From NCBI GenBank assembly GCA_024790105.1, contig GCA_024790105.1_3053.1: a DNA stretch of 64,000 nucleotides. One strand, given 5' to 3'. Within the stretch, counting starts at the first letter, position 1, and each line of letters opens with the position of its first letter. This DNA comes from a phage. Shown here piece by piece: positions 3,010 to 43,132 of this stretch. The translations under genes and the position numbers were made by a program. The notes beneath the pieces were generated by a model. That model did not search any database. It was not told where the DNA came from and was given only the letters and a program-made list of their open reading frames with translations.

Positions 3010-4597
<1,588 letters not shown>

Positions 4598-4624
4598 AAT
4601 AAAATGGGCCTTGCGGCCCACTCC

Positions 4625-8111: not shown

Positions 8112-8156
8112 AACTTTTCCTCTTGTTATGGATTATTTATTAACGGTCTGTGTACT

Positions 8157-9590: not shown

Positions 9591-9615
9591 AAGTCCTCTG
9601 TAGTAAGTTACCCCA

Positions 9616-9623
9616 TATAAATA
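9616..9623 (+). promoter_or_regulatory. T4-type late promoter TATAAATA
   Basis: exact TATAAATA 22 nt upstream of the GIY-YIG ORF ATG, followed by an AGGAGA RBS. Confidence 0.7.
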
Positions 9624-9645
9624 TAATTTTATATAGGAGAATATA

Positions 9646-10377
9646 ATGAAATCTGGAATATATGCTATTATAAACACTAAAACTAATAAGCACTATATAG
9701 GAAGTGCAATTAATTTTGAAGAACGATGGAAACGACACTTTAAAGATTTAGATAATGGAAATCATCATTCAATAAAGCTGCAGCGTTCTTATAATAAGCA
9801 TGGTAAAGATGCTTTCGTATGTAAAATCATAGAAGAACTTCCATACGAAAAATCTATCATTATTGAACGTGAAAATTATTGGATGCATGAATATGACTCA
9901 AAGGAAAATGGGTATAATATAGCAGACGCATCGTTTGGGGATACCTTATCTCATCACCCAAGAAAGCAAGAAATCCTTAATAAAATTTCAAATGCAATTA
10001 AAAATAATAATTCAAAATTATCACCAGAAGAACTTAAGCAAAAACATGGTAGACCTAGAGACATCAAAGGTAAAACTATAGAAGAACACTATGGGTTAGA
10101 TCGTGCTATAGAAATAAGCAAAAAGTTCCAAGAAAGAAACGCTGCACTTAATATGAAAGGCATCAATAATCCATATTACGGTCAGACGCATACCAATGAA
10201 GTTAGAAAACGAATTTCTGACTCACAGAGAGGTAAAAAGAAACCCCATCTAAGAGTAAGTATAGATGGGGTAGAATATCCAACAATAGCAGAAGCTGTGC
10301 GTCAAACCGGAATAAGCAGAAAACTTATATCTAAAAGATGTGCTCTAGATTGCTGGGAATCATATTTATACTGCTAA
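9646..10377 (+). CDS. free-standing GIY-YIG homing endonuclease, I-TevI paralog
   Basis: 243 aa; N-terminal ~100 aa about 70% identical to the I-TevI catalytic domain encoded at 11094-11831 (MKSGIY...YIGSA...RWKRHFKDL...NGYNIADA); different C-terminal DNA-binding region. Confidence 0.85.
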
Positions 10378-10946: not shown

Positions 10947-11962
10947 CATTATGTTCAGATAAGGTCGTTAATCTTACCCCGGAATTATATCCAGCTGCAT
11001 GTCACCATGCAGATCAGACTATATCTCCAACTTGTTAAAGCAAGTTGTCTATCGTTTCGAGCCACTTGACCCTACTCCCCAAAGGGATAGTCGTTAGGCA
11101 TTTATGTAGAACCAATTCCATTTATCAGATTTTACACGATAAGTAACTAATCCAGACGAAATTTTAAAATGTCTAGCTGCATCTGCTGCACAATCAAAAA
11201 TAACCCCATCACATGAAATCTTTTTAATATTACTAGGCTTTTTACCTTTCATCTTTTCTGATATTTTAGATTTAGTTATGTCTGAATGCTTATGATTAAA
11301 GAATGAATTATTTTCACCTGAACGATTTCTGCATTTACTACAAGTATAAGCAGAAGTTTGTATGCGAACACCGCACTTACAAAACTTATGGGTTTCTGGA
11401 TTCCAACGCCCGTTTTTACTTCCGGGTTTACTGTAAAGAGCTTTCCGACCATCAGGTCCAAGTTTAAGCATCTTAGCTTTAACAGTTTCAGAACGTTTCT
11501 TAATAATTTCTTCTTTTAATGGATGCGTAGAACATGTATCACCAAACGTTGCATCAGCAATATTGTATCCATTAATTTTAGAATTAAGCTCTTTAATCCA
11601 AAAATTTTCTCGTTCAATAATCAAATCTTTCTCATATGGAATTTCTTCCAAAATAGAACATTCAAACACATTACCATGTTTGTTAAAAGACCTCTGAAGC
11701 TTTATAGAAGAATGACATCCTTTTTCTAAATCTTTAAAATGCCTCTTCCATCTCTTTTCAAAATCTTTAGCACTTCCTACATATACTTTATTGTTTAAAG
11801 TATTTTTAATCTGATAAATTCCGCTTTTCATAAATACCTCTTTAAATATAGAAGTATTTATTAAAGGGCAGTCCTACAATTTAGCACGGGATTGTCTACT
11901 AGAGAGGTTCCCCGTTTAGATAGATTACAAGTATAAGTCACCTTATACTCAGGCCTAAATTA
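10947..11962 (-). mobile_element. td group I self-splicing intron (1016 nt)
   Basis: 5' end UAAUUUAGGCCUGAGUAUAAGGUGACUUAUACUUG... and 3' end ...AACAUAAUG recognised as the T4 td intron; exon 1 ends in U, intron ends in G. Confidence 0.9.
11094..11831 (-). CDS. intron-encoded GIY-YIG homing endonuclease I-TevI
   Basis: 245 aa, MKSGIYQIKNTLNNKVYVGSA...; recognised as I-TevI; lies wholly inside the td intron. Confidence 0.9.
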   Translation of the reverse strand: MKSGIYQIKNTLNNKVYVGSAKDFEKRWKRHFKDLEKGCHSSIKLQRSFNKHGNVFECSILEEIPYEKDLIIERENFWIKELNSKINGYNIADATFGDTCSTHPLKEEIIKKRSETVKAKMLKLGPDGRKALYSKPGSKNGRWNPETHKFCKCGVRIQTSAYTCSKCRNRSGENNSFFNHKHSDITKSKISEKMKGKKPSNIKKISCDGVIFDCAADAARHFKISSGLVTYRVKSDKWNWFYINA

Positions 11963-16085: not shown

Positions 16086-16718
16086 TCATAGCTGGCATAA
16101 TTTGCAATACTCTGGGTCTTCGAGAGGTATCCAACCTGAGTTGAAATACTTTACCATCGATTTAGCAGTTGTATCAGTTATATTTATATTACCTTTAACT
16201 CTTCGCCATCCAGGAGTTTTACCGTACAGATTAGAAGATAATAATAACACATAATTCTCGTAAGCAATATGAGATAATTTCCAAGACTCTATATTAGCTC
16301 GTGATGTTTTCCAAGGTCTAAAATCGTCACGGTTCATATAATTAGCCAATCTCATATGCTCTCTAACTTCCGGGTCTTTGGCTGGATGAGTTTCACCACT
16401 CACACCAAATCCACCACCAGCATATACCAAATTAAAATAGTCTGGATTATCTCTGGCATTTACTTCAAGTTGGTATTTTCGTTCTGCTTCAATAACATCT
16501 AAGTCATCATCAATTTGAATTATTTTAACGCTCGGTTTTTGAAGCATTAGCGCATTCAAAAATCTTTTTTGTTTACATGAGCTCCAGTATTCCTTTCCGG
16601 AAGAGTCATATATTATTCCGTTCTCAAATGAGCAATTTAATTTACTACCGATATAGTAGTATGGTGGAGTCTTATTTTTGACACGGTCTTCAAATGTAAA
16701 CCAATATACTATATTCAT
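16086..16718 (-). CDS. probable GIY-YIG-type endonuclease (SegG-like, between genes 32 and 59)
   Basis: 210 aa; N-terminal YYYIGSKLN...GIIYDSSG resembling the Seg GIY-YIG motif; position matches T4 segG as recalled. Confidence 0.5.
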   Translation of the reverse strand: MNIVYWFTFEDRVKNKTPPYYYIGSKLNCSFENGIIYDSSGKEYWSSCKQKRFLNALMLQKPSVKIIQIDDDLDVIEAERKYQLEVNARDNPDYFNLVYAGGGFGVSGETHPAKDPEVREHMRLANYMNRDDFRPWKTSRANIESWKLSHIAYENYVLLLSSNLYGKTPGWRRVKGNINITDTTAKSMVKYFNSGWIPLEDPEYCKLCQL

Positions 16719-18881: not shown

Positions 18882-18944
18882 ATGAACCTCGTTCAATTAG
18901 TGAGATTTCTATTATATACCATCCAAATCTTAAAGTAAACAAGT

Positions 18945-18952
18945 ATAAATAC
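18945..18952 (+). promoter_or_regulatory. T4-type late promoter TATAAATA for gene 34
   Basis: exact TATAAATA 34 nt upstream of the gene 34 ATG. Confidence 0.7.
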
Positions 18953-18985: not shown

Positions 18986-21900
18986 ATGGCCGAGATTAAA
19001 AGAAAGTTCAGAGCAGAAGATGGTCTGGACGCAGGTGGCGATAAAATAATCAACGTAGCTTTAGCTGATCGTACCGTAGGAACTGACGGTGTTAACGTTG
19101 ATTACTTAATTCAAGAAAACACAGTTCAACAATATGATCCAACTCGTGGATATTTAAAAGATTTTGTAATCATTTATGATAACCGCTTTTGGGCTGCTAT
19201 AAATGATATTCCAAAACCAGCAGGAGCTTTTAATAGCGTACGCTGGAGAGCATTACGTACTGATGCTAATTGGACAACTGTTTCATCAGGACCTTATCAA
19301 TTAAAGTCAGGCGAATCAATTTCAGTTGATACTGCAGCCGGTAATGACATTACATTTACTTTACCATCTACCCCAATTGACGGTGATACTATCGTTCTCC
19401 AAGATATTGGAGGAAAACCTGGAGTTAATCAAGTTTTAATTACAGCTCCGGTACAAAGCATTGTAAATTTTAGAGGTCAGCAAGTACGTTCAGTACTAAT
19501 GACTCATCCAAAATCACAGATAGTTTTAATTTTTAGTAATCGTCTGTGGCAAATGTATGTCGCTGATTATAGTAGAGAAGCTGTAGTTGTAACGCCTGCG
19601 AGTCTCTATCAGGCGCAATCTAACGATTTTATCGTGCGTAGATTTACTTCCGCTGCGCCTATTAATATTAAACTTCCGAGATTTGCTAATCATGGCGATA
19701 TTATTAATTTCGTTGATTTAGATAAATTAAATCCACTTTATCATACAATTGTCACGACATATGATGAAACAACTTCAGTACAAGAAGTTGGAACTCATTC
19801 CATTGAAGGTCGTACATTGATTGACGGTTTCTTGATGTTTGATGATAATGAGAAATTGTGGAGATTGTTTGACGGGGATAGTAAAGCACGTTTACGCATT
19901 ATAACAACTAATTCTAATATTCGTCCAAATGAAGAAGTTATGGTATTTGGTGCGAATAACGGAACAGCCCAAACAATTGAACTTCAGCTTCCAACCGATA
20001 TTTCCGTTGGTGATACTGTTAAAATTTCCATGAATTACATGAGAAAAGGACAAACGATTAAAATCAAAGCTGCAGGTGAAGATAAAATTGCTTCTTCAGT
20101 TCAATTACTGCAATTCCCAAAACGCTCAGAATATCCGCCTGAAGCTGAGTGGGTTACAGTTCAAGAATTAGTTTTTAACGGTGAAACTAATTATGTTCCA
20201 GTTTTGGAGCTTGCTTATATAGAAGATTCTGATGGAAAATACTGGGTTGTACAACAAAACGTTCCAACAGTTGAAAGAGTTGATTCTTTAAATGATTCTA
20301 CTAGAGCAAGATTAGGCGTAATTGCTTTAGCTACACAAGCTCAAGCTAACGTCGATTTAGAAAATTCTCCACAAAAAGAATTAGCAATTACTCCAGAAAC
20401 ATTAGCTAACCGTACTGCTACTGAAACTCGTAGAGGTATCGCAAGAATAGCAACTACTGCTCAAGTTAACCAGGATACTACATTCTCTTTTGCTGATGAT
20501 ATTATCATCACTCCTAAAAAGCTGAATGAAAGAACAGCTACTGAAACTCGCAGAGGTGTTGCTGAAATTGCTACACAGCAAGAAACTAATGCAGGAACCG
20601 ATGATACTACAATCATCACTCCTAAAAAGCTTCAAGCTCGACAAGGTTCTGAATCATTATCCGGTATTGTAACTTTTGTATCTACTGCAGGTGCTACTCC
20701 AGCTTCTAGCCGTGAATTAAATGGTACGAATGTTTATAATAAAAACACTAATAATTTAGTTGTTTCACCTAAAGCTTTGGATCAGTATAAAGCTACTCCA
20801 ACACAACAAGGTGCAGTAATTTTAGCAGTTGAAAGTGAAGTAATTGCTGGACAGAGTCAAGAAGGATGGGCAAATGCGGTTGTAACACCAGAAACGTTAC
20901 ATAAAAAGACATCAACTGATGGAAGAATTGGTTTAATTGAAATTGCTACGCAAAGTGAAGTTAATACAGGAACTGATTATACTCGTGCAGTCACTCCTAA
21001 AACTTTAAATGACCGTAGAGCAACTGAAAGTTTAAGTGGTATAGCTGAAATTGCTACGCAAGTCGAATTCGACGCAGGCGTCGACGATACTCGTATCTCT
21101 ACACCATTAAAAATTAAAACCAGATTTAATAGTACTGATCGTACTTCTGTTGTTGCTCTATCTGGATTAGTTGAATCAGGAACTCTCTGGGACCATTATA
21201 CCCTTAATATTCTTGAAGCAAATGAGACACAGCGTGGTACACTTCGTGTAGCTACACAAGTTGAAGCTGCTGCAGGAACATTAGATAATGTTTTAATAAC
21301 TCCTAAAAAGCTTTTAGGTACTAAATCTACTGAAGCGCAAGAAGGTGTTATTAAAGTTGCAACTCAGTCTGAAACTGTGACTGGAACGTCAACAAATACT
21401 GCTGTATCTCCAAAAAATTTAAAATGGATTGTGCAGAGTGAACCTACTTGGGCAGCAACTACTCTGATAAGAGGTTTTGTTAAAACTTCATCTGGTTCAA
21501 TTACATTCGTTGGTAATGATACGGTAGGTTCAACACAGCCATTAGAATCATATGAGAAAAATAGCTATGCAGTATCACCATATGAATTAAACCGTGTATT
21601 AGCAAATTATTTACCGTTAAAAGCAAAAGCTGCTGATACAAATTTATTGGATGGTCTAGATTCATCTCAGTTCATTCGTAGGGACATTGCGCAGACAGTT
21701 AATGGTTCACTAACCTTAACCCAACAAACGAATCTGAGTGCCCCTCTTGTATCATCTAGTACTGCTACGTTTGGTGGTTCAGTTACAGCAAATAGTGTAC
21801 TAACTATTTCTAATACTGGAACAGAAACTCATCTGATTTTTGAGAAAGGACCTCAAACTGGAACTAACCAAGCACAGACTGTGACTATTAGAGTGTGGGG

Positions 21901-22855
21901 TAATCAATTTAGTGGTGAATCAGATGCAACGCGTTCTACTGTATTTGAAGTTAGTGATGAAACATCTTATCACTTTTATTCTCAACGCGATAAAGATGGT
22001 AATATAGCATTTAGCATTAATGGTACTGTAATGCCAATAAATGTGAATGCTTTAGGTTCTTTGAATGCGAACGGCGTTGCAACATTCGGTAGTTCAGTTA
22101 CTGCTAATGGCGAATTTATCAGTAAATCGTCGAATGCTTTTAGAGCAATAAACGGTGATTATGGATTCTTTATTCGTAATGATGCTGCTAACACCTATTT
22201 TATGCTTACTGCATCGGGTGATCAGACTGGTGGATTTAATGGATTACGTCCTTTAGCTATTAATAATGCATCTGGTCAAGTAACGATTGGTGAAAGCTTA
22301 ATCATTGCCAAAGGTGCTACTATAAATTCAGGCGGTTTGACTGTTAACTCGAGAATTCGTTCTCAGGGTACTAAAACACCTGATTTATATACCCGCGCAC
22401 CAACATCTGATACTGTAGGATTCTGGTCAATCGATATTAACGATTCAGCCACTTATAATCAATTCCCTGGTTATTTTAAAATGGTTGAAAAAACTAATGA
22501 AGTGACTGGACTTCCATACTTAGAACGTGGCGAAGAAGTTAAATCTCCTGGTACATTGACTCAGTTTGGTAATACACTTGATTCGCTTTACCAAGATTGG
22601 ATTACTTATCCAACAACACCAGAAGCGCGTACCACTCGCTGGACACGTACATGGCAGAAAACCAAAAACTCTTGGTCAAGTTTTGTTCAGGTATTTGATG
22701 GAGGTAACCCTCCTCAACCGTCTGATATTGGTGCTTTACCATCTGATAATGCTATAATGGGGAATCTTACTATTCGTGATTTCTTACGAATTGGTAATGT
22801 TCGCATTATTCCTGACCCAGTGAATAAAACGGTTAAATTTGAATGGGTTGAATAA
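18986..22855 (+). CDS. 34: long tail fibre proximal subunit gp34
   Basis: 1289 aa; contains about seven copies of the (I/V)(T/S)PKxL...ATQ repeat; recognised as T4 gp34. Confidence 0.95.
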   Translation: MAEIKRKFRAEDGLDAGGDKIINVALADRTVGTDGVNVDYLIQENTVQQYDPTRGYLKDFVIIYDNRFWAAINDIPKPAGAFNSVRWRALRTDANWTTVSSGPYQLKSGESISVDTAAGNDITFTLPSTPIDGDTIVLQDIGGKPGVNQVLITAPVQSIVNFRGQQVRSVLMTHPKSQIVLIFSNRLWQMYVADYSREAVVVTPASLYQAQSNDFIVRRFTSAAPINIKLPRFANHGDIINFVDLDKLNPLYHTIVTTYDETTSVQEVGTHSIEGRTLIDGFLMFDDNEKLWRLFDGDSKARLRIITTNSNIRPNEEVMVFGANNGTAQTIELQLPTDISVGDTVKISMNYMRKGQTIKIKAAGEDKIASSVQLLQFPKRSEYPPEAEWVTVQELVFNGETNYVPVLELAYIEDSDGKYWVVQQNVPTVERVDSLNDSTRARLGVIALATQAQANVDLENSPQKELAITPETLANRTATETRRGIARIATTAQVNQDTTFSFADDIIITPKKLNERTATETRRGVAEIATQQETNAGTDDTTIITPKKLQARQGSESLSGIVTFVSTAGATPASSRELNGTNVYNKNTNNLVVSPKALDQYKATPTQQGAVILAVESEVIAGQSQEGWANAVVTPETLHKKTSTDGRIGLIEIATQSEVNTGTDYTRAVTPKTLNDRRATESLSGIAEIATQVEFDAGVDDTRISTPLKIKTRFNSTDRTSVVALSGLVESGTLWDHYTLNILEANETQRGTLRVATQVEAAAGTLDNVLITPKKLLGTKSTEAQEGVIKVATQSETVTGTSTNTAVSPKNLKWIVQSEPTWAATTLIRGFVKTSSGSITFVGNDTVGSTQPLESYEKNSYAVSPYELNRVLANYLPLKAKAADTNLLDGLDSSQFIRRDIAQTVNGSLTLTQQTNLSAPLVSSSTATFGGSVTANSVLTISNTGTETHLIFEKGPQTGTNQAQTVTIRVWGNQFSGESDATRSTVFEVSDETSYHFYSQRDKDGNIAFSINGTVMPINVNALGSLNANGVATFGSSVTANGEFISKSSNAFRAINGDYGFFIRNDAANTYFMLTASGDQTGGFNGLRPLAINNASGQVTIGESLIIAKGATINSGGLTVNSRIRSQGTKTPDLYTRAPTSDTVGFWSIDINDSATYNQFPGYFKMVEKTNEVTGLPYLERGEEVKSPGTLTQFGNTLDSLYQDWITYPTTPEARTTRWTRTWQKTKNSWSSFVQVFDGGNPPQPSDIGALPSDNAIMGNLTIRDFLRIGNVRIIPDPVNKTVKFEWVE

Positions 22856-22863
22856 GAGGTATT

Positions 22864-23979
22864 ATGGAAAAATTTATGGCAAAGTTTGGACAAGGATATG
22901 TCCAAACGCCATTTTTATCGGAAAGTAATTCAGTAAGATATAAAATAAGTATAGCGGGTTCTTGCCCGCTTTCTACAGCAGGACCATATGTCAAATTTCA
23001 GGATAATCCTGTTGGAAGTCAAACATTTAGCGCAGGCCTTCATTTAAGAGTTTTTGACCCTTCTACGGGAGCATTAGTTGATAGTAAGTCATATGCTTTT
23101 TCGACTTCAAATGATACTACATCAGCTGCTTTTGTTAGCTTCATGAATTCTTTGACAAATAATAGAATTGTTGCTATATTAACTAATGGAAAGGTTAATT
23201 TTCCTCCTGAAGTAGTATCTTGGTTAAGAACCGCCGGAACGTCTGCTTTTCCATCTGACTCTATATTGTCAAGATTCGACGTATCATATGCTGCTTTTTA
23301 CACTTCTTCTAAAAGAGCTATTGCATTAGAACATGTTAAACTAAGTAATAGAAAAAGCACAGATGATTATCAAACTATTTTAGATGTTGTATTTGATAGT
23401 TTAGAAGACGTTGGAGCTACCGGGTTTCCAAGAAGAACGTATGAAAGTGTTGAGCAATTTATGTCAGCCATTGGTGGAACTAATAACGAAATTGCACGTT
23501 TACCAACTTCATCCGCGACAAGTAAATTATCTGATTATAATTTAATTCCTGGCGATGTTCTTTATCTTAAAGCGCAGCTATATGCTGATGCCGATTTACT
23601 TGCGCTTGGAACTACAAATATATCTATCCGTTTTTATGATGAATCGAATGGATATATTTCTTCAACACATGCTGAGTTTACTGGACAAGCTGAGTCATGG
23701 GAATTAAAGGAAGATTATGTAGTTATTCCAGAAAACGCGGTAGGATTTACGATATATGCACAAAGAACTGCACAAGCAGGTCAAGGTGGCATGAGGAATT
23801 TAAGTTTTTCTGAAGTATCAAGAAATGGCGGAATTTCAAAACCTGCTGAATTTGGCGTCAATGGTATTCGAGTTAATTATGTCTGTGAATCTGCTTCACC
23901 TCCGGATATAATGGTACTTCCTACACAAGCATCGTCTAAAACTGGTAAAGTGTTTGGGCAAGAATTTAGAGAAGTTTAA
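22864..23979 (+). CDS. 35: long tail fibre hinge protein gp35
   Basis: 371 aa, immediately downstream of gene 34 with RBS AAGAGG. Confidence 0.9.
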   Translation: MEKFMAKFGQGYVQTPFLSESNSVRYKISIAGSCPLSTAGPYVKFQDNPVGSQTFSAGLHLRVFDPSTGALVDSKSYAFSTSNDTTSAAFVSFMNSLTNNRIVAILTNGKVNFPPEVVSWLRTAGTSAFPSDSILSRFDVSYAAFYTSSKRAIALEHVKLSNRKSTDDYQTILDVVFDSLEDVGATGFPRRTYESVEQFMSAIGGTNNEIARLPTSSATSKLSDYNLIPGDVLYLKAQLYADADLLALGTTNISIRFYDESNGYISSTHAEFTGQAESWELKEDYVVIPENAVGFTIYAQRTAQAGQGGMRNLSFSEVSRNGGISKPAEFGVNGIRVNYVCESASPPDIMVLPTQASSKTGKVFGQEFREV

Positions 23980-23984
23980 ATTGA

Positions 23985-24010
23985 GGGAGCCTTCGGGTTC
24001 CCTTTTTCTT
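23985..24010 (+). terminator. rho-independent terminator after gene 35
   Basis: hairpin GGGAGCCUUCGGGUUCCC (UUCG loop) followed by UUUUUCUUU. Confidence 0.6.
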
Positions 24011-24018
24011 TATAAATA
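24011..24018 (+). promoter_or_regulatory. T4-type late promoter TATAAATA for gene 36
   Basis: exact TATAAATA 24 nt upstream of the gene 36 ATG. Confidence 0.7.
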
Positions 24019-24041
24019 CTATTAAAATAAAGGGGCATATA

Positions 24042-24698
24042 ATGGCTGATTTAAAAGTAGGTTCAACAACTGGAGGCTCTGTCATTTGGCATCAAGGAAA
24101 TTTTCCATTGAATCCAGCCGGTGACGATGTACTCTATAAATCATTTAAAATATATTCAGAATATAATAAGCCACAAGCTGCTGATAACGATTTTGTTTCT
24201 AAAGCTAATGGTGGTACTTATTTAAATAAAGTAATTTTTAATAAAGGAATGACTGTTCCTGGCGCAGGGTCAGGCGATAATGGTATTTTTGCTGGTCCTG
24301 GTGATAGTGCCACGTATGATACTACAAATATGGATATTGTTTCGTGGTATGGTATTGGTTTTAAATCATCACAAGGAACAGCAGGTAGAACTGTAGTAAT
24401 TAACACACGAAATGGAGATATTAGCTCAAAGGGCGTAATTGAAGCATCGCAAATCCGTGTAACTTCGTTATCACCAGTAAATAATTATGACCTTACGCGG
24501 AAAGATTATGTTGATGGAGCAATAAATATTGTTACAGCAAACGCAAACTCTAGGGTATTACGCTCTGGAGACACTATGACAGGAAATTTAACTGCGCCAA
24601 ACCTTTTTTCACAGAATCCTGCATCTCAACCCTCACATGTTCCACGATTTGACCAAATTGTTATTAAGGATTCTGTTCAAGATTTCGGCTATTATTAA
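24042..24698 (+). CDS. 36: long tail fibre distal connector gp36
   Basis: 218 aa; position between 35 and 37. Confidence 0.9.
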   Translation: MADLKVGSTTGGSVIWHQGNFPLNPAGDDVLYKSFKIYSEYNKPQAADNDFVSKANGGTYLNKVIFNKGMTVPGAGSGDNGIFAGPGDSATYDTTNMDIVSWYGIGFKSSQGTAGRTVVINTRNGDISSKGVIEASQIRVTSLSPVNNYDLTRKDYVDGAINIVTANANSRVLRSGDTMTGNLTAPNLFSQNPASQPSHVPRFDQIVIKDSVQDFGYY

Positions 24699-24706
24699 GA
24701 GGACTT

Positions 24707-27700
24707 ATGGCTACTTTAAAACAAATACAATTTAAAAGAAGCAAAACTGCAGGAGCACGTCCTGCCGCTTCAGTATTAGCCGAAGGTGAATTGGCTATAA
24801 ACTTAAAAGACCGTGTACTTTTTACTAAAGATGACCAAGGAAATATTATTGATCTGGGTTTTGCTAAAGGTGGTAGTATTGACGGGAATGTTATTCATAC
24901 AGGCAATTATAACCAAACTGGCGATTATACTTTAAATGGCGTCTTCACTCAGACTGGTAATTTTAATTTAACTGGTATTGCTAGAGTAACTCGCGATATT
25001 ATTGCCGCTGGGCAGATTATGACTGAAGGCGGAGAACTTATTACAAAAAGTTCAGGTACAGCACATGTTCGTTTTTTCGATAGCAATAGTCGCGAACGTG
25101 GAATCATTTATGCCCCGGCTAATGATGGTTTAACTACACAAGTACTTAATATCAGGGTTCAAGACTACGCCGCTGGTGATGAAAGCACCTATGCATTTTC
25201 GGGCAGTGGACTATTTACTTCACCTGAAGTATCAGCATGGAAATCTATTTCGTCTCCACAAATTCTGACCGACAAAGTTATTACAAATGGGAAGAAGACA
25301 GGCGATTATGATATCTATTCATTATCAAATAACACTCCAATGGCAGAAGGCGAAACGGCTATTAACCACCTCCGTGTTATGCGAAATGCTGTAGGAGCAG
25401 GTATTTTCCACGAAGTTAATGTTAATGACGGAATAACCTGGTATTCCGGAGATGGCTTAGACACTTATCTTTGGTCGTTTAACTGGGCCGGTGGATTGAA
25501 AGCGGGTCATTCTATTTCTATAGGTATCCCAGGCGGTCCAAAAGGATATTCTGAATTAGGAACTGCCTCAATTGCTCTTGGTGATAATGATACCGGGCTA
25601 AAATGGCATCAAGATGGATATTTCTATACAGTAAACAACGGAACAAAAACTTTCATCTATGGTCCAGGAGAAACGCAAAGCCTTAGAAAAATGGTTATGG
25701 CTTATTCTCCAGATGGGCTTCTTATGACAACGCCGCCGACAGAAAACTATGCATTAGCCACTGTCGTGACATATCACGATAATAACGCGTTTGGAGATGG
25801 TCAGACTCTTTTGGGATATTATCAAGGCGGTAACTATCATCATTATTTCCGCGGCAAGGGTACCACAAACATTAATACTCATGGCGGTTTGTTAGTTACT
25901 CCAGGTAATATTGATGTTATTGGCGGTTCTGTTAATATAGATGGTAGAAATAATTCTTCTACACTAATGTTTAGAGGCAACACAACAGGATACAGCTCGG
26001 TTGATAATATGGATATTAAAGTTTGGGGTAATACGTTTGTTGATCCAAGCGGTAATCGTAAAAACATCATGGAAATTTCTGATGCAACTAGTTGGATGAG
26101 TTATATTCAACGAACAACTGCAGGTAAAGTTGAATCGGTTATAAATGGCACCCAGATTGTTAATGAAAACTTGACCGTAGTAAAAAATGCTACATTTGAT
26201 GGTACAATCAGCGCAGCAGGAGAAATTTCATCTGGAGCAGTGAATGCGCTTCGCATTTGGAATAATGATTATGGAGCTATTTTTAGACGTTCAGAAGGCA
26301 GTCTTCATATTATTCCAACTGCTTATGGTGAAGGTAAACATGGTGATATCGGTCCACTTCGCCCGTTTAGTATGGCTTTAGATACCGGTAAAGTTACTAT
26401 TCCAGATTTACAATCAAGTTATAATACGTTTGCTGCTAACGGTTATATTAAATTTGTTGGTCATGGTGCGGGAGCCGGTGGTTATGACATTCAATATGTT
26501 CAAGCGGCTCCTATTTTCCAGGAAATCGATGATGATGCTGTAAGCAAATATTATCCTATTGTTAAACAGAAGTTTTTAAACGGTAAATCCGTTTGGTCTT
26601 TAGGTACTGAAATTAATTCGGGTACATTCGTTATTCATCATCTGAAAGAAGATGGTTCACAAGGCCATACGTCTCGTTTTAATCAAGACGGTACTGTTAA
26701 CTTCCCAGATAACGTTTCTGTTGGCGGCGGTGAAGCTACTATTGCTCGCAATGGTAATATCTGGTCTGATATCTGGAAAACGTTTACTTCTGCCGGTGAT
26801 ACTACAAATATTCGCGATGCTATTGCGACACGTGTTTCGAAAGAAGGCGACACGATGACCGGCAAGTTGATTATTAGAAGAGATTCTGATGCTATTAACT
26901 TAGCTGCGCCTTCAGCGACTGATGCAAGTTACCTTCTTTCTACCGGCGGTGGAGAAAATCAATGGTATATTGGTAAAGGCGGCGCTGATAATACTGTATC
27001 ATTCTACAACTATAAAACCAGTGGGGCTGTGCAAATTAACTCTATTGGTGAAATCGCACTGATTCCACAAGGTGCTGCAACATTTAACTTTAACCGCGAT
27101 CGTCTCCATATAAATGGGACTCAATGGACTGCGCATCAGGCCGGCGATTGGGGAAATCAATGGCGCCAGGAAGCTCCTGTATTTGTGGATTTTGGCTACG
27201 TCGGTAATGATAGTTATTATCCTATTATTAAAGGAAAATCTGTTATTACGAATGAAGGATACGTATCTGGTGTTGATTTTGGTATGCGCCGTACCACTAA
27301 CCAATGGGCTCAGGCTATTATCCGTGTTGGTAACCAGGAAAATGCTAGCGATCCACAAGCTATCTATGAATTCCACCACAACGGAGTTATGTATGCTCCT
27401 AACATGGTACAAACTGGAGCAAGATTATCGGCTGGCGGTGGTGACCCGGTGTGGACTGGACCATGTCTTGTTATTGGCGATAACGATACTGGATTAGTTC
27501 ATGGTGGTGACGGTCGAATCAATATGGTTGCCAATGGTATACATATTGCAAACTGGGGAGCAGGCTATCAATCTCATCCTGGGCTTTGGGATTCAACCGG
27601 TGCTTTTTGGACAGAAGTTGGAAGAGCTATCGTTTCTCATGGGCATCTCGTTCAGGCAAATGATAGTTATTCAACGTTTGTCCGTGATGTTTATGTCCGT

Positions 27701-28036
27701 TCTGATATTCGAGTTAAAAAAGACCTTGTTAAATTTGAAAATGCTTCTCAGAAGCTTTCTAAAATTAACGGTTACACTTATATGCAGAAAAGAGGCCTAG
27801 ACGAAGACGGTAATCAGAAATGGGAACCTAACGCTGGTTTGATAGCGCAAGAAGTTCAAGCTATTTTGCCAGAATTAGTTGAAGGTGACCCTGATGGCGA
27901 AGCTTTACTTCGTTTGAACTATAACGGTGTAATTGGTTTAAATACAGCTGCAATCAATGAGCATACTGCAGAAATTGCGGAACTTAAATCAGAGATTGAA
28001 GAGCTTAAAAAATTAGTTAAATCATTGTTAAAATAA
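24707..28036 (+). CDS. 37: long tail fibre distal subunit gp37 (T2-type, with C-terminal intramolecular chaperone-like domain)
   Basis: 1109 aa; C-terminal ~120 aa (…[17 protein letters not shown]…[16 protein letters not shown]… plus terminal coiled coil) resembles the self-cleaving chaperone domains of phage fibres and endosialidases. Confidence 0.9.
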
Positions 28037-28040
28037 TAAG

Positions 28041-28056
28041 AGGGGCTTCGGCCCCT
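28041..28056 (+). other. stable stem-loop (UUCG tetraloop) between gene 37 and gene 38
   Basis: AGGGGCUUCGGCCCCU directly upstream of the gene 38 GGAGG RBS; no U-run follows. Confidence 0.4.
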
Positions 28057-28067
28057 TGGAGGTTTAT

Positions 28068-28862
28068 ATGGCAGTTGAAGGACCGTGGGTAGGATGGTCT
28101 GCAGTAGTTAATACAGGACAAAATTGGATGGGCGGCGCGGCCCAACGATTAAGAATGGGCATTCCGTTCTGGATGAGTAATATGATAGGTCGATCTGTTG
28201 AAGTAATTCACACGCTTGGAGCAGACCATAACTTCAATGGTCAATGGTTCCGAGATAGATGTTTTGAGGCAGGTAGTGCACCTATAGTGTTTAATATCAC
28301 TGGAGATTTAGTATCATATTCTAGAGACGTTCCTTTATTCTTCATGTACGGAGATACACCGAATGAATATGTTCAGTTGAATATTAGCGGTGGAGCTCAT
28401 ATGTGGGGCAGAGGTGGACAAGGTGGATGGACTCATTCTGGTGGAGATGGTAATGGTCAACAGGGTGGACATTGTATTCAAAATGACATTGGTGGTCGGT
28501 TAAGAATTAATAATGGTGGAGTAATTTGTGGCGGAGGAGGCGGCGGCGGCGGTATCGCTTATCGTCCTCACTCTGGTGCAAACTGGCAAGATATTGGTGG
28601 CGGTGGAGGAAGACCGTTTGGCCCAGGAGGTGGCGGTGGTTATTCAGGAGGTGCTGCTTCTTATGATGGTCCAGGAGGTGGTTATAATTATGGTAATGCT
28701 CACTCTGGTCAAGGTGGCGATGCTGGAGGAAATGGACAAAATGCCTGGCATGATGGTGGTAAAGTTCTAAAAGTTGGCGCTGGCGGGGCGGCAGGTTATG
28801 CTGTAATAGGGTCTGCTCCAACATGGCAAAATGTTGGAATAATATATGGTCCAAGAGTATAA
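28068..28862 (+). CDS. 38: receptor-recognising adhesin gp38 (T2-type, glycine-rich motifs)
   Basis: 264 aa from ATG at 28068 (GGAGG RBS 5 nt upstream; ORF track used an upstream TTG); poly-Gly blocks GGGGGGGG and GGGGG separating short variable segments. Confidence 0.85.
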
Positions 28863-28893
28863 TTTTGAATAAATACCCTTAAAAGGAGGGTCT

Positions 28894-29550
28894 ATGACAG
28901 CACCTAGAATATCATTTTCGCCCTCTGGTATTCTGTTTGGTGTTCTAGATCGCTTGTTCAAAGATAACGCTACCGGGAAGGTTCTTGCTTCCCGGGTAGC
29001 TGTCGTAATTCTTTTATTTATGATGGCGATTGTTTGGTATAGGGGAGATAGTTTCTTTGAGTACTATAAGCAATCAAAGTATGAAACATACAGTGAAATT
29101 ATTGAAAAGGAAAGAAATGCACGCTTTGAATCTGTCGCCCTGGAACAACTCCAGATAGTTCATATATCATCTGAGGCAGACTTTAGTGCGGTGTATTCTT
29201 TCCGCCCTAAAAACTTAAACTATTTTGTTGATATTATAGCATATGAAGGAAAATTACCTTCAACAATAAGCGAAAAATCACTTGGAGGATATCCTGTTGA
29301 TAAAACTATGGATGAATATACAGTTCATTTAAATGGACGTCATTATTATTCCAACTCAAAATTTGCTTTTTTACCAACTAAAAAGCCTACTCCCGAAATA
29401 AACTACATGTACAGTTGTCCATATTTCAATTTGGATAATATCTATGCTGGAACAATAACCATGTACTGGTATAGAAATGATCATATAAGTAATGACCGCC
29501 TTGAATCAATATGTTCTCAGGCGGCCAGAATATTAGGAAGGGCTAAATAA
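28894..29550 (+). CDS. t: holin
   Basis: 218 aa; MTAPRISFSPSGILFGVLDRLFKDNATGKVLASRVAVVILLF... recognised as T4 holin T with single N-terminal TM. Confidence 0.9.
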   Translation: MTAPRISFSPSGILFGVLDRLFKDNATGKVLASRVAVVILLFMMAIVWYRGDSFFEYYKQSKYETYSEIIEKERNARFESVALEQLQIVHISSEADFSAVYSFRPKNLNYFVDIIAYEGKLPSTISEKSLGGYPVDKTMDEYTVHLNGRHYYSNSKFAFLPTKKPTPEINYMYSCPYFNLDNIYAGTITMYWYRNDHISNDRLESICSQAARILGRAK

Positions 29551-29823
29551 TTATTTGTTTGTATACATTTCTAAATATCTATATACACCCTCAAAACCCT
29601 CGTTGAATTCGTCGATGAGGGTTTTCTTATCTTCTTGAGTTAATTCAGAAACAATTTTACGGAATGAATTCTGATTTAATTTTCTACCTTCATGTGTTAC
29701 TCCAATCTCATTCAGAAATGCAATAAAATTAGCACGATTTTCAACAATATCTTCTCTGGAAAATTTAATCAAAATAGACGCAACAGTAATAATTTCACGA
29801 ACTGTATCAATATTTTTATTCAT
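29551..29823 (-). CDS. asiA: anti-sigma70 factor AsiA
   Basis: 90 aa; MNKNIDTVREIITVASILIKF... recognised as T4 AsiA. Confidence 0.9.
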   Translation of the reverse strand: MNKNIDTVREIITVASILIKFSREDIVENRANFIAFLNEIGVTHEGRKLNQNSFRKIVSELTQEDKKTLIDEFNEGFEGVYRYLEMYTNK

Positions 29824-40272: not shown

Positions 40273-40805
40273 CTACTGGCTCATCCATTCTTTACGAAGG
40301 TCAGCATTATCTCCCATGAGCATTTCAAAAAGCTCTTTCCAGTTCTCAGGAAGTTTAACAACATCATATACTGGGTTTTGAATCATTTCTTTATATTCAT
40401 CCCGCTGAAGTGAGCCCAATCCCTTGATGTATCGAATACTATGTTTAGGTAGAGCATCTTTAGCACTCTCATATTCAGCGACTGTATAAAACCATTCTTG
40501 TTTTTTACCTACCTGAGCGATGATTACAGGAGTTTTGACGAAGCGAATTCTTCCTTGTTCAAACAGTTCTGGCCAATTACTAAAAAATCCGAGCAGAGAA
40601 GGATAAATAGAACCTAATCCAATAATCTCTTAATTATGAGGTATTTCTATAGATAGCCCGAAGGCTATCCATCGTGATCTGCGTCTGTCATAATAGCGAC
40701 ATTCGCATAGTTCATTGAAGAGGATTTAATAGAACGACGAACATTGTTCTGCAATTTATATTTTTTCATATCAACGCTAGAAGAATCAATTTTTACAAAT
40801 TTCAT
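40273..40805 (-). CDS. 60: DNA topoisomerase II small subunit gp60, translated across a 50-nt bypass
   Basis: codons 1-46 (MKFVKIDSSS...TDADHDG) at 40668-40805, UAG stop, 50-nt gap, codons 47-160 (LGSIYP...RKEWMSQ) at 40276-40617; 46+114 = 160 aa. Confidence 0.85.
40618..40670 (-). promoter_or_regulatory. gene 60 translational bypass (hop) element
   Basis: minus strand GAU GGA UAG CCUUCGGGCUAUCUAUAGAAAUACCUCAUAAUUAAGAGAUUAUU GGA UUA: take-off GGA 40668-40670, UAG 40665-40667, UUCG-loop hairpin, landing GGA 40618-40620. Confidence 0.9.
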
Positions 40806-41604
40806 TATACACCTCATAGAACTTTTCATCAGGAATCCAACCGCGTTTAAATTCATTAAATGCTCGGCCGAATAATTTTGAATTCACAGTTATATTATTA
40901 ACTGATTTCCATTTAGCAACTCCCGTTCGTTTATAATGATCGGGGTCATATTTCGTGACGTACCATTCATATAAATTTGGTATTAATTTTACAGCCTCTG
41001 GATTTGTCGCTGATTTATTATACCATGGTTTCGCTTTTTCAAGTTCAGCTGCTTTTGCAGTAGCAGCAACAGTATTTCCAATACCAACTAATTTTTCAGT
41101 TTTAATGCGTGGATCATTAACATGAAGACGAAAAACTTCGCCCTTTTCATTTTTAAAGCATGTCATGCCTTTAATTCCAGGAAGCTTAACACCTTTATTA
41201 ACACCGCACCATTCCTTTGGGTTAAATGATCCTTTAATTAATAAGGCGCATTTACCCGATTTAATATTTCTCATTAAAACTTTATCTTTCATAAAGTTTT
41301 TTGACCATTCAGATACTGCTCTTTGATGGTAAATTCTAGCAATTTCATATAATTTACTAGAACGTAAATATTTTTCAGTGTTTAACATTCTATTCATCGC
41401 ATATGCCATTTCACGATTACGATGAATTTTATATAGTAGAAAATGTGCTAAAAAGTGTTCACGAAAAGTCAGTTTCACCAAATTTTCTTTATCATCAGAA
41501 CCTCCCATTGATCTTGGAAGGATATGATGAATTTCACCCTTAAATTTAGAAACGCGGGTTTTACCCCGCACTATTAAGTCATTATAGATTTTTTCGTAAT
41601 TCAC
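40786..41604 (-). CDS. mobA: HNH homing endonuclease MobA
   Basis: 272 aa; HNH motif EIHHILPRSMGGSDDKENLVKLTFREH; sits between genes 39 and 60. Confidence 0.8.
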   Translation of the reverse strand: MNYEKIYNDLIVRGKTRVSKFKGEIHHILPRSMGGSDDKENLVKLTFREHFLAHFLLYKIHRNREMAYAMNRMLNTEKYLRSSKLYEIARIYHQRAVSEWSKNFMKDKVLMRNIKSGKCALLIKGSFNPKEWCGVNKGVKLPGIKGMTCFKNEKGEVFRLHVNDPRIKTEKLVGIGNTVAATAKAAELEKAKPWYNKSATNPEAVKLIPNLYEWYVTKYDPDHYKRTGVAKWKSVNNITVNSKLFGRAFNEFKRGWIPDEKFYEVYNEICKN

Positions 41605-43132
41605 CTACTGTTATCCATTTACCATTAATCTGTACTTCATCATTTTCATTTACGATAATTGTATCGCCATTTAGCTCGAAAGTAAACCACTCGCCATCTT
41701 CTTTTTCTTCAAACGCTTTTTCACCAAGAACTAATCCAGTGATTGCGCAAATATCAAACAGTTCTTTGTTTTTAAGCATATCAGCATATGACATACCCCA
41801 ACTGTTGAGAACTTTACCACGCAATGGATAACCACCGTGAAGTTCTTTATCACGAACATCAATAAGATATCCGATAGCAGAATCACCCTCAGTCAAGAAA
41901 AGAGTAGTGTCAGCATCTTTACTACAAAGATTCGCTTTGATATGTTTATGAACCTTAGCTTTAGAAGCCTTTTTAGCTGCTTTAGTTTCTGCTGCTTTCT
42001 CTGCCGCCAATTTACGAGCCAAAGCAGCTTCAATAATCGGCATCAGAATTGCTTCATTATTTAGAATAGCGCGTGAAATCTTTTTAGCATCAAGTTGAAT
42101 ATGACTACGAATTTCACCGAATGGAGAAGTCAAACGCTCTTTAGTTTGAGAATCAAATCGCATGTTTTTCATATCACGAACAAACATAACGATAGTCAAA
42201 CATTCTTTAACGCGTGCTTTAGTTACATCAATTTTGAACTTACGTTTGATTTGTGGAATAAGGTCTTCACAAATATCATCCATAACACAGTCAATGTGAT
42301 GGCCACCATTCTTAGTGTGAATGTTATTCACGTAAGTTAATTGACGAAATCCATCCGGTGAACGACCAACCGCAATAGAGCAATTTTCCTGTTCTTGAAC
42401 GATAGCATGCTCATCATACTGGCGTGCATACTTCTTAAAATTGCCCTGAACCTTTTTACCGTTAAAGGTAAATTGAATATCAGGATAAACTACTGCAAGT
42501 GTCTGGAGACGATCTAGTGTAATGTCAAGATAAACTTGAGATAGCTCATTAGTTTCAAATGACATAAAATCAGGAATGAAAGTAACGCGAGTTCCTTTCC
42601 ATTTTCCAGGAATAGTTTCCCATGATTTATTTTCCATGCCGTTTGAACAACGAACTACAATATTATTTTGACCGTCGCCAGTTTCACCGACAAACATCAC
42701 AGAAAAAATGTTAGTTAAACTAGAACCAACACCGTTCATACCACCGGTGACACGTTCTTTATCATCACCAAAGTTACCACCCGCTTTTGGAATAGTCCAC
42801 GCAGCAACAGGACCAGGAATTTCTTCACCGGTAGGTGTTTTAACCATCGCCTGTGGAATACCGCGACCGTTATCTTCAACTGTTACTTGATTATTTTTAA
42901 TAGTAACATTAATTTTATTCGCGAATTTAAACTTAGTACGAATACCTTCATCTACCGAGTTATCGATAATTTCATCAATAAGCTTAACAAGACCAGGTAC
43001 ATACTGAACACTTTCCCATTTACCAAACAGAAAGCGCTCATGCATTTCATTAGCAGAAGAGCCAATATACATGCCGCTACGCTTTTTGATATGTTCAATA
43101 TCGCTCAGAATTTTAATTTCATTCTTAATCAT
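41582..43132 (-). CDS. 39: DNA topoisomerase II large (ATPase, GyrB-like) subunit gp39
   Basis: 516 aa from MIKNEIKILSD; GHKL ATPase motifs (DNGRGIP, GG.NGVGSS); recognised as T4 gp39. Confidence 0.9.
   Translation of the reverse strand: MIKNEIKILSDIEHIKKRSGMYIGSSANEMHERFLFGKWESVQYVPGLVKLIDEIIDNSVDEGIRTKFKFANKINVTIKNNQVTVEDNGRGIPQAMVKTPTGEEIPGPVAAWTIPKAGGNFGDDKERVTGGMNGVGSSLTNIFSVMFVGETGDGQNNIVVRCSNGMENKSWETIPGKWKGTRVTFIPDFMSFETNELSQVYLDITLDRLQTLAVVYPDIQFTFNGKKVQGNFKKYARQYDEHAIVQEQENCSIAVGRSPDGFRQLTYVNNIHTKNGGHHIDCVMDDICEDLIPQIKRKFKIDVTKARVKECLTIVMFVRDMKNMRFDSQTKERLTSPFGEIRSHIQLDAKKISRAILNNEAILMPIIEAALARKLAAEKAAETKAAKKASKAKVHKHIKANLCSKDADTTLFLTEGDSAIGYLIDVRDKELHGGYPLRGKVLNSWGMSYADMLKNKELFDICAITGLVLGEKAFEEKEDGEWFTFELNGDTIIVNENDEVQINGKWITVGELRKNL

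Follow-up and report, generated by a model that had tools for sequence, protein, structure and literature searches.

Among the described systems closest to the locus analysed here is the distal long tail fibre of Salmonella phage S16, a phage which is placed in another genus. In the fibre tip of S16 (PDB 6F45; Dunne et al. 2018) the C-terminal chaperone of gp37 (about 111-113 aa, as in our locus) is removed by autocleavage, and gp38 consists of an N-terminal attachment domain bearing tryptophans, a beta-helix and a polyglycine sandwich. The cleavage of S16 gp37, the docking of gp38 and the role of the N-terminal tryptophans have been described in this phage (PMC7917993). In T-even phages an adhesin gp38 predominates, with T4 as the exception, since the 3' end of g37 together with g38 was replaced there by lambda-like sequence (Trojet 2011, PMC3157838). 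The receptors of the relevant phages differ: T2 uses FadL/OmpF, T6 uses Tsx, PP01 binds OmpC of O157:H7 (PDB 9V85; PMC12892980), and FL08 and AV119 were shown by experiment to depend on OmpA, type 1 (Lutz et al. 2025, PMC12032242). Publications dating from the 1980s through 2026 have already covered the architecture of these tips, the way in which cleavage and docking proceed, the GRM/HVS layout of gp38, the modular shuffling and the atypical position of T4.

Organisation of the locus

The stretch of DNA that was analysed, 64,000 nucleotides in length and called here the window, carries g37 at 24707-28036 and g38 at 28068-28862, and every feature which the first-pass annotation had ascribed to this region was found there. 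It is very likely that a phage of the genus Tequatrovirus (T-even) has here its distal long-tail-fibre module in the common adhesin-type ('T2-type') form, and that this module arose and works in the way proposed below. Its tip, a self-cleaving gp37 fibre with a glycine-rich gp38 adhesin as the cap, is an ordinary one and is standard among most T4-like coliphages. The module is present at a coverage of at least 80% in 116 phage records. The g37 stop codon at 28036 is followed by g38 and then by t at 28894, and this order is the same in 8 relatives, PP01 having the same locus order. The features of the region are the following.

18944-18951: putative late promoter, a second copy of TATAAATA, upstream of g34
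24011-24018, + strand: putative late promoter, T4-type consensus TATAAATA, upstream of g36, assigned by its position relative to the gene start only
24042-24698, + strand: g36, small distal half-fibre subunit or hinge connector, 218 aa (Pfam PF03903, E 1.5e-28)
24505-24875, + strand: left homology anchor, a conserved island running from the 3' end of g36 into g37 for ~56 codons; divergence from T4, T2 and T6 starts from about 24876
24707-28036, + strand: g37, large distal half-fibre subunit, 1109-aa precursor (PHROG 1699 'long tail fiber protein distal subunit', full length)
26039-26371, + strand: gp37 shaft domain, aa 445-555, homologous to the C-terminal trimerisation domain of gp34 (Pfam PF21446, E 3.5e-8; gp34 in PDB 4UXE/5NXF, E 3e-14)
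27464-27700, + strand: distal tip of gp37, aa 920-998, ending in ...RDVYVR998, the predicted gp38 docking surface once cleaved (alignment to S16 gp37, 6F45_A)
27701-28036, + strand: predicted C-terminal intramolecular chaperone of gp37 (Peptidase_S74, PF13884), aa 999-1109, containing the dyad Ser999/Lys1004 and, at the C-terminal end, an amphipathic helix; the cleavage site of S16 aligns here
28040-28057, + strand: hairpin GAGGGGC-UUCG-GCCCCUU in the intercistronic gap, after the stop codon of g37 and before the ribosome-binding site of g38 (MFE -14.1 kcal/mol)
28068-28862, + strand: g38, receptor-recognising adhesin, 264 aa (Pfam PF05268 and PF21721; PDB 9V85 and 6F45_D)
28136-28324, + strand: strongest recombination breakpoint interval, in the conserved 5' part of g38 (max-chi2)
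28782-28893, + strand: right homology anchor, formed by the conserved C-terminal segment of gp38, which T2/T6 share from about 28781, and by the intergenic region between g38 and t, which T4 shares from 28869

The promoter consensus TATAAATA occurs 7 times in the window against 11 expected, without enrichment, and its positions before g34 and g36 are suggestive. The g36 protein is 80-82% identical in amino acids to those of T4 and T2 and 60% identical to that of T6; in base-level alignment the central part of the gene (about 24226-24500) has diverged from all three and matches the PP01 group, and the exact protein was found on 84 public contigs. The start codon of g38 is the ATG at 28068, preceded at a distance of 5 nt by a GGAGG ribosome-binding site (28058-28062); the ORF finder lists a TTG at 28056, which sits inside the hairpin. 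The stability of this hairpin was not significant when compared with shuffled sequences (z = -1.44). An Rfam scan of the whole window at the gathering threshold, td intron region included, returned 0 matches, and no NCBIfam model matched gp37 or gp38.

The gp37 fibre and its C-terminal chaperone

The gp37 precursor, with its 1109 aa, is longer than T4 gp37 (1026 aa), and it had been noticed earlier that its end resembles the self-cleaving intramolecular chaperones. The Pfam search agrees with this observation: Peptidase_S74 (PF13884) was detected at the extreme C-terminus (aa 999-1058, E 2e-12, 47.6 bits with a cut-off of 22), positions 1-57 of the 58 in the model being covered, together with the autocleavage motif S999-D-I-R-V-K1004, which has the form of a Ser-Lys dyad (S-D-x-R-x-K) with S-x4-K spacing. 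SDIRVK is conserved in all 8 relatives, and the S-D-x-R-x-K motif is also found near the gp37 C-terminus of T2 (S1243) and T6 (S882), phages of the same architecture, whereas T4 gp37, which itself bears the receptor-binding tip, has neither the S74 domain nor the motif. Furthermore, aa 920-1109 align with the C-terminus of S16 gp37 (PDB 6F45_A, E 6e-44), and the S16 cleavage motif DLNVS^SDRRIKK corresponds to DVYVR^SDIRVKK in the window; the shaft of S16 gp37 is different. The S74 chaperones of endosialidases and other phage fibres (PF13884) resemble this domain in the near-full model match and the S-x4-K pair; however, in the window the domain is on a T-even long-tail-fibre shaft and not on a tailspike, and the predicted cleavage would also unmask the docking site of a separate adhesin.

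T4 has its own genes in the same slot between g36 and t, and the ~56 N-terminal codons of its gp37 are conserved in the window, but the shaft is weakly homologous. With blastp the T4 protein is ~34% identical over aa 1-685, the alignment stops at aa 685 of the window protein (T4 aa 788), and no homology was detected between the gp37 C-terminus and the T4 receptor-binding domain (T4 gp37 aa ~785-1026), so the C-terminal part has no alignable counterpart in T4 gp37, in line with the first-pass annotation. The identity of gp37 to its counterparts in T2, T4 and T6 is about 33% in each case (for T2, 33.7% across aa 1-685, and 29.5% across aa 814-1097). Much closer are the 8 relatives, with 85-92% amino acid identity, and PP01 gp37 has the same length of 1109 aa and 89.8% identity.

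The gp38 adhesin

The 264-aa gp38 had been described as an adhesin of the T2 type in which poly-glycine blocks separate variable segments, rather than an assembly chaperone of the T4 type. Five glycine blocks (GRM1-5) and four variable segments (HVS1-4) could indeed be mapped. The protein begins with an N-terminal attachment domain (aa 1-40, with W7, W20 and W35) and a beta-helix (aa 41-106), which are followed by the polyglycine sandwich carrying GRM1-5 and HVS1-4 (aa 113-238, nt 28404-28781) and by a conserved C-terminus (aa 239-264). Glycine makes up 27% of the whole protein and 37% of aa 110-264. GRM3 is 100% conserved in 10 of the 10 comparators, and the identity of the HVSs spans 0-100%. 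The protein is a clear adhesin homolog, matching the Pfam families GP38 (PF05268, E 7e-68, 229.2 bits) and Gp38_N (PF21721, E 6e-21, 74.6 bits), both with a cut-off of 25 bits, PHROG 2056 (E 3.8e-110), the receptor-binding domain of PP01 gp38 (PDB 9V85, E 1.9e-73) and S16 gp38 (6F45_D, E 2.6e-51). W7, W20 and W35 align with the tryptophans of S16 gp38 in the latter structure; the hypervariable loops of S16, a phage that binds Salmonella OmpC, are different. The exact gp38 protein is already in NCBI (EJP8998543.1) under the name "receptor-recognizing protein".

The gp38 of PP01 is 100% identical over aa 41-106 and 80% identical over aa 1-40, which suggests, by the published lock-and-key subtype rule, that the window has the same subtype of attachment between the gp37 tip and gp38. 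The gp38 proteins of T2 and T6 (44.4% and 63% identical overall) share the five GRMs, the four HVSs and the C-terminus ...WQNVGxIYGxRV, yet their attachment domains are 45-52% identical to that of the window and thus represent a different attachment subtype. The N-terminal subtype of the window gp38 may be the 'K3-like' one of Trojet 2011.

In the mechanism we propose, the 1109-aa gp37 precursor is made (its open reading frame is observed), and, if it acts like its homologs in S16 gp37 and the endosialidases, the 111-aa C-terminal S74 chaperone would drive the folding of the gp37 trimer and then cut itself off between Arg998 and Ser999 by means of the Ser999/Lys1004 dyad, so that the last 111 aa are predicted to be absent from the virion. 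By analogy with the S16 complex (6F45), the tip ...DVYVR exposed by the cleavage would receive the tryptophan-bearing N-terminal attachment domain of gp38. The four hypervariable loops on the C-terminal polyglycine sandwich of gp38 may then bind an outer-membrane protein, predicted to be OmpA.

Recombination and origin of the module

In g37, segments resembling those of PP01, CE1 and ESh32/RB27 are combined into an intragenic mosaic, the best match switching from segment to segment. In the max-chi2 tests of the module the observed value was reached in 0 of 500 permutations. The strongest interval lies in the conserved 5' part of g38, with values of 231.5 at 28136 (ESh32 vs ELT1) and 106.9 at 28324 (ESh32 vs Jbel), neither attained in any of the 500 permutations; upstream of it the sequence follows phages of the ESh32/RB27 type, which have a T6/Tsx-like gp38, and downstream it follows the OmpA-type specificity domain of ELT1, Jbel, CE1 and FL08. 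By sequence, the alleles belong to the PP01/RB27/ESh32 group of gp37 and to the FL08/AV119/ELT1 group of gp38. The name T2-type, given to the module earlier, is therefore appropriate for the architecture (self-cleaving gp37 end, separate glycine-rich gp38) and not for the alleles, and a literal T2 module was rejected, as gp37 is only ~33% and gp38 44% identical to the alleles of T2 itself.

The T4 markers which had been cited as the sign of a T4-type phage, namely the gene 60 bypass, mobA, I-TevI and a segG-like gene, are all present in the window.

11094-11831, - strand: I-TevI
16086-16718, - strand: segG
40647-40670, - strand: gene 60 bypass, exact 24-nt match
40786-41604, - strand: mobA-like HNH open reading frame

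These markers are mobile homing-endonuclease cassettes. They are 99.2-99.7% identical to the T4 copies (mobA/gene 60 bypass, segG and I-TevI), compared with 92-97% for the backbone, and the phage records that contain them number 41, 142 and 187. T6 itself has I-TevI, and the markers co-occur with the same module in the adhesin-type phages CE1, ELT1, HY03, PD112, Manna, PEC04 and JEP6, while EC128 carries all of them. The contrast between a T2-type tip and an otherwise T4-type gene set proved to be a false one, as the flanks to the left and right of the module are about equally close to T4 (93.6/96.9% nucleotide identity), T2 (91.8/95.8%) and T6 (93.2/95.7%).

It might still be supposed that a phage of the T4 lineage, with a needle-tip gp37 and a chaperone gp38, has recently swapped its receptor-binding tip for a T2-type module. 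This would fit the sharp break of T4 homology at 24873 and its return at 28869, with no nucleotide homology to T4 from 24874 to 28868, as well as the high identity of the cassettes to T4 and a right flank marginally nearer to T4 (96.9%) than to T2 and T6 (about 95.8%). We regard such a recent import as very improbable. The breaks against T6 and T2, where homology on the left ends at 24861 and 24939, are equally sharp, therefore the locus is hypervariable and the replacement is not specific to T4. The flanks have no specific T4 likeness, and the markers are self-mobile, far closer to T4 than the backbone around them and common in adhesin-type phages, while the closest relatives over the whole flanks (ESh32, EC128, PEC04, AV119 and others) are adhesin-type. 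Moreover, adhesin-type gp38 was found in 846 phage records and T4-type gp38 in about 200 (91 at ≥80% identity and 116 at 60-80%); the adhesin form is the majority and presumably ancestral one, with T4 as the lambda-derived exception (PMC3157838). Since the adhesin type is predominant and the T4 arrangement is derived, no import into a T4-type phage is required.

Thus, from the modular exchange of the tip suggested in the first-pass annotation, the recombination at the locus is real, but the import of a T2-type tip into a T4-type phage is very improbable in view of an equidistant backbone and an adhesin form that is in the majority. We propose that the module was reshuffled by homologous recombination among adhesin-type phages, for which the junction of g36 with g37, internal patches of g37 and, in g38, both the conserved 5' part and the 3' end would serve as anchors, and that the genome gained the T4-like homing-endonuclease cassettes separately; the direction and timing of these exchanges were deduced from how prevalent the forms are and how high the identities are. 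The genome would be a natural example of two textbook processes, the swapping of a gp38 specificity domain by anchor recombination and the independent spread of homing-endonuclease cassettes.

Predicted receptor

The primary receptor is probably OmpA (type 1, broad range), because the gp38 loops hardly differ from the loops of FL08 and AV119, two phages whose dependence on OmpA is experimental, and because R166 and D218, residues specific to type 1, are retained in them. The gp38 proteins of these two phages are 95.5% and 94.7% identical to that of the window, and the identity of the segments is 100% for HVS1, 86-93% for HVS2, 89% for HVS3 and 94% for HVS4, compared with only 0-39% for HVS1-4 of T6 (Tsx), PP01 (OmpC) and T2 (FadL/OmpF). 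Their R165, D217, R181 and R262 are kept as R166, D218, R182 and R263, and T6, PP01 and T2 differ at the first two of these positions. FL08 and AV119 are nevertheless distinguished from the window by 12-14 substitutions in gp38, of which 5-6 fall in the HVSs (P167V, Q174K in FL08 only, D200V, G201A, N207Q, H228S), and by a gp37 which is only 87.6-88.5% identical and consists of other mosaic blocks. The HVSs are identical in Jbel and nearly identical in ELT1 and CE1, phages for which no receptor data were found.

That gp38 might serve in assembly only, as a chaperone comparable to T4 gp38 or lambda Tfa, the receptor site being on gp37 itself, could be thought of from its place at the genomic position of T4 g38 and from the label 'distal long tail fiber assembly catalyst' on some homologs (e.g. 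in HY03 and wV7). However, the 183-aa T4 gp38, an unrelated lambda-Tfa-like chaperone (PMC3157838), has no sequence similarity to the window gp38 (no blastp match at E 1e-3), the latter strongly matches the Pfam GP38 adhesin families and two receptor-binding gp38 crystal structures, an intramolecular chaperone is already contained in gp37, and the labels are T4 annotation transferred by gene position; the probability of this function is negligible. More weight can be given to the same architecture with a primary receptor other than OmpA (Tsx, OmpC, OmpF or FadL) or with a dual requirement for OmpA and LPS as in RB32, although we consider this unlikely as well. HVS similarity is an imperfect predictor of the receptor: a few substitutions can change or add receptors, as in PST vs T6 and SV76 vs T2 (Trojet 2011, PMC3157838), several HVS positions differ from FL08 and AV119, and the gp38 of RB32, 89.8% identical, requires OmpA and is also LPS-sensitive. 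Against this stand the 86-100% identity of HVS1-4 to the OmpA type 1 loops with 0-39% to those of the Tsx, OmpC and FadL/OmpF types, the retained contact residues R166 and D218, and the finding that the receptor is predictable from Gp38 phylogeny (Lutz 2025).

With OmpA as the probable receptor, the practical use of these results is in annotation and host-range prediction, as the phage can now be classed with the adhesin-type members of Tequatrovirus, OmpA (type 1, broad-range) being its predicted receptor and its gp37 being predicted to undergo processing. There is also a slim chance that the gp37 patches which recombine independently of gp38 (about aa 201-350, 401-500, 701-800 and 951-998) aid secondary host recognition, through lateral contacts with LPS or glycans or by tuning the presentation of gp38. 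If so, the joining of a distal shaft of the ESh32/RB27 type to a gp38 specificity domain of OmpA type 1 would make the host range unpredictable from gp38 alone.

Organization of the tail fibre operon

The distal long tail fibre locus (g37 and g38, 24707-28862) is best described as a common Tequatrovirus fibre-tip module of the adhesin type, whose gp37 belongs to the PP01/RB27 group and whose gp38 is putatively of the type 1, OmpA class. This module was reshuffled through intragenic recombination, and T4-like homing cassettes were gained separately by the genome. According to the ORF list, the T-even long tail fibre operon lies on the plus strand of the window:

18986-22855, +, g34
22864-23979, +, g35
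24042-24698, +, g36
24707-28036, +, g37 (1109 aa)
28068-28862, +, g38 (264 aa, counted from ATG)
28894-29550, +, t holin
next after t holin, - (opposite strand), asiA

The g38 start is likely the ATG, because the TTG at 28056 chosen by the ORF finder sits within a hairpin, upstream of the GGAGG ribosome-binding site. g37 ends with tandem stops (TAATAA); next come a tetraloop hairpin, GGGGC-UUCG-GCCCC, and then the ribosome-binding site of g38 (28034-28062). This intercistronic hairpin might serve to stabilise the mRNA or to couple translation, but had no significance against shuffled sequences. Within 24750-29000 the G+C content is 0.40-0.48 across g37-g38 versus about 0.31-0.37 in the flanks, and the GC skew is strongly positive (up to +0.38, maximum over g38); the GGN (glycine) codon load of g38 would shift both values in this direction there.

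Domains and proposed maturation of the fibre tip

The first-pass annotation had described a 1109-aa gp37 with a C-terminus like self-cleaving chaperones and a 264-aa, glycine-rich gp38 of the T2 (adhesin) type, and both descriptions agreed with the Pfam matches. In gp37 these are Peptidase_S74 (aa 999-1058, E 2e-12; "chaperone of endosialidase") and a trimerisation domain like that of gp34 (aa 445-555). gp38 was matched by two families, GP38 at E 7e-68 and Gp38_N at E 6e-21, and has 27% glycine in the whole protein and 37% in aa 110-264. Residues 920-1109 of gp37 align with 6F45_A (E 6e-44), the S16 gp37 fragment co-crystallised with gp38; gp38 matches 9V85, the crystal structure of the PP01 gp38 receptor-binding domain (E 1.9e-73), and 6F45_D, S16 gp38 (E 2.6e-51).

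The S74 catalytic motif S-D-x-R-x-K, here S999-D-I-R-V-K1004, is also found in gp37 of T2 (S1243), T6 (S882) and 8/8 close relatives, and is missing from T4 gp37. In the alignment it corresponds to DLNVS^SDRRIKK, the site defined by experiment in S16, where the last 113 residues of gp37 are autocleaved after trimerisation, exposing the gp38 docking surface (PMC7917993). By homology to S16, gp37 would be cut between R998 and S999, shedding 111 aa, and the gp38 attachment domain, whose W7, W20 and W35 have aligned tryptophan counterparts in S16 gp38, would then dock onto the ...DVYVR tip. The C-terminal half of gp38 consists of five glycine-rich motifs and four hypervariable segments (HVS1-4), a design described by Trojet 2011 (PMC3157838) and resolved in S16 as a polyglycine sandwich; the third glycine-rich motif is conserved 100% in all comparators.

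Mosaic structure of the module

Amino-acid identities were compared with T4, T2 and T6 from GenBank. gp34, gp35 and holin are 92-98% identical to all three, gp36 80-82% to T4 and T2 and 60% to T6, and gp37 about 33% to each, its alignment to T4 gp37 (1026 aa, in line with the first-pass annotation) ending at aa 685. gp38 is 63% identical to that of T6 and 44% to that of T2, and no match to T4 gp38 was found. The architecture is thus T2-type, as had been proposed, yet with alleles that differ from T2's own.

Identity to T4, T2 and T6 drops first in mid-g36 (about 24226-24500) and returns in a conserved island (24505-24875) that covers the 3' end of g36 and runs ~56 codons into g37. Past 24875 it is lost until 28781 (the conserved gp38 C-terminus) for T2 and T6, and until 28869, directly after the g38 stop, for T4; the breaks occur against all three phages and not only T4. 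In comparison with nearer relatives the module is made of patches: g37 resembles PP01 or CE1 at codons ~201-300 and ESh32/RB27/AV119 at codons 701-800 and 951-1000 (96-100% vs 52-78% for others), and the g38 specificity domain is ELT1/Jbel/CE1/FL08-like. Recombination at this locus was confirmed by triplet max-chi-square tests, with chi2 of 90-231 and the observed value reached in 0/500 shuffles; the strongest switch is at 28136-28324, within the conserved 5' part of g38. In this module an OmpA-type specificity domain is thus combined with a distal shaft that most resembles the shafts of phages with T6 (Tsx)-type gp38. Swaps at conserved motifs of the same kind were reportedly described by Tétart in 1998. 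They were also described by Trojet 2011 (PMC3157838).

The kind of system, its mechanism and its genomic context are all already known, and the novelty is at most a new mosaic allele. The exact gp38 is in NCBI (EJP8998543.1, annotated as "receptor-recognizing protein [Escherichia coli]", from a contig of 171,081 bp) and the exact gp36 on 84 contigs. Contig look-up placed the exact gp37 allele in one Logan assembly (SRR21296878, 17,266-bp contig), together with the exact gp38 in the same gene order; at 90%, gp37 clusters with NiC89 and ESH35 proteins.

Predicted receptor

HVS1-4 are 100%, 86-93%, 89% and 94% identical to those of FL08 and AV119, and 0-39% to those of T6 (Tsx), RB27/ESh32 (probably Tsx-type, being T6-like), PP01 (OmpC) and T2 (FadL/OmpF). 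FL08 and AV119 were OmpA-dependent in deletion-mutant plating and define the "type 1" group, which is of broad range and has R165 and D217 as key contacts (PMC12032242); the equivalents R166 and D218 are kept here and differ in T6, PP01 and T2. RB32, whose gp38 is 89.8% identical, also requires OmpA. Because of these likenesses OmpA is the most likely predicted receptor, with the caveat that a few HVS substitutions are enough to alter specificity (Trojet 2011, PMC3157838).

Is this a T2-type module in a T4-type gene set?

The supposed T4 markers were all found in the window, including the gene 60 take-off site with its hairpin (exact 24-nt match, 0 expected by chance):

40647-40670, -, gene 60 take-off site and hairpin
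40786-41604, -, mobA-like HNH endonuclease
11094-11831, -, I-TevI
16086-16718, -, segG

These markers are homing-endonuclease cassettes: mobA/gene 60 is 99.5% identical to T4 isolates (41 records), segG 99.2% to T4 (142 records) and I-TevI 99.7% to T4 (187 records, T6 among these). All are closer to T4 than the surrounding backbone, as expected since such elements spread by homing. They co-occur with the same tail fibre module in CE1, ELT1, HY03, PD112, Manna, PEC04 and JEP6, and EC128 (ON210139.1) has the module and all three cassettes. The flanks are not specifically T4-like, with left/right nucleotide identities of 93.6/96.9% to T4, 91.8/95.8% to T2 and 93.2/95.7% to T6; the nearest whole-flank relatives are other field isolates (about 95-96%).

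The module itself is widespread. Region 24000-29600 is present in 116 phage records at >=80% coverage, with 86-94% nucleotide identity among the 40 matches listed, and gp37 has exactly 1109 aa in Jbel, ELT1, PP01 and FL08. By tblastn, adhesin-type gp38 occurs in 846 phage records and T4-type gp38 in 91 at >=80% identity and 116 at 60-80%, other matches being lambda-Tfa-like. Adhesin gp38 is the predominant form and T4 the exception, its g37 C-terminus and g38 having been replaced by lambda-derived sequence (Trojet 2011, PMC3157838); a 2026 paper treats T4-type and T2-type as the established classes. Because of this prevalence, the literature, the flanks, the mobility of the markers and their co-occurrence with the module, the suggested transfer of a T2-type module into an otherwise T4-type gene set is not upheld.

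The mobA/gene 60 cassette (40500-41650) was present in only 41 of 477 matching records, the match in the others being confined to ~109 nt of flanking topoisomerase gene sequence, and the backbone around it is about 95-96% identical to the best relatives, versus 99.5% to T4 isolates for the cassette; this pattern is consistent with recent spread by homing. An Rfam scan of the whole window at gathering thresholds returned zero families, and the td intron housing I-TevI was not called as group I either.

Other features of the window

nrdA is in two pieces (6422-9677, -), and nrdB is apparently interrupted too (3010-6370, -):

8157-9677, -, nrdA piece, 506 aa (ATP-cone, all-alpha domain, barrel positions 1-221)
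7401-8111, -, ORF between the nrdA pieces, 236 aa (I-HmuI NUMOD-like, HNH-type homing endonuclease domain)
6422-7411, -, nrdA piece, 329 aa (barrel positions 219-523)
5693-6370, -, nrdB part, whose match to the small-subunit model is confined to positions 9-141

The split nrdA resembles the 'genes-in-pieces' nrdA of Aeromonas phage Aeh1 and might be of that kind, or alternatively contain an intron; the RNR alpha subunit is annotated twice in several related records. More ORFs (4187-5104) lie between the nrdB ORF and an ORF at 3010-4170, and 3010-6370 may be an nrdB intron/endonuclease region. A free-standing GIY-YIG/NUMOD3 endonuclease ORF (9616-10377, +, 243 aa, TIGR01453 E 3.5e-37) lies on the other strand from all of the genes around it, and ~30 nt of it overlap the start of nrdA; T4 is not known to have a gene in this orientation at this site. 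The late-promoter consensus TATAAATA is found ahead of this ORF at 9616-9623.
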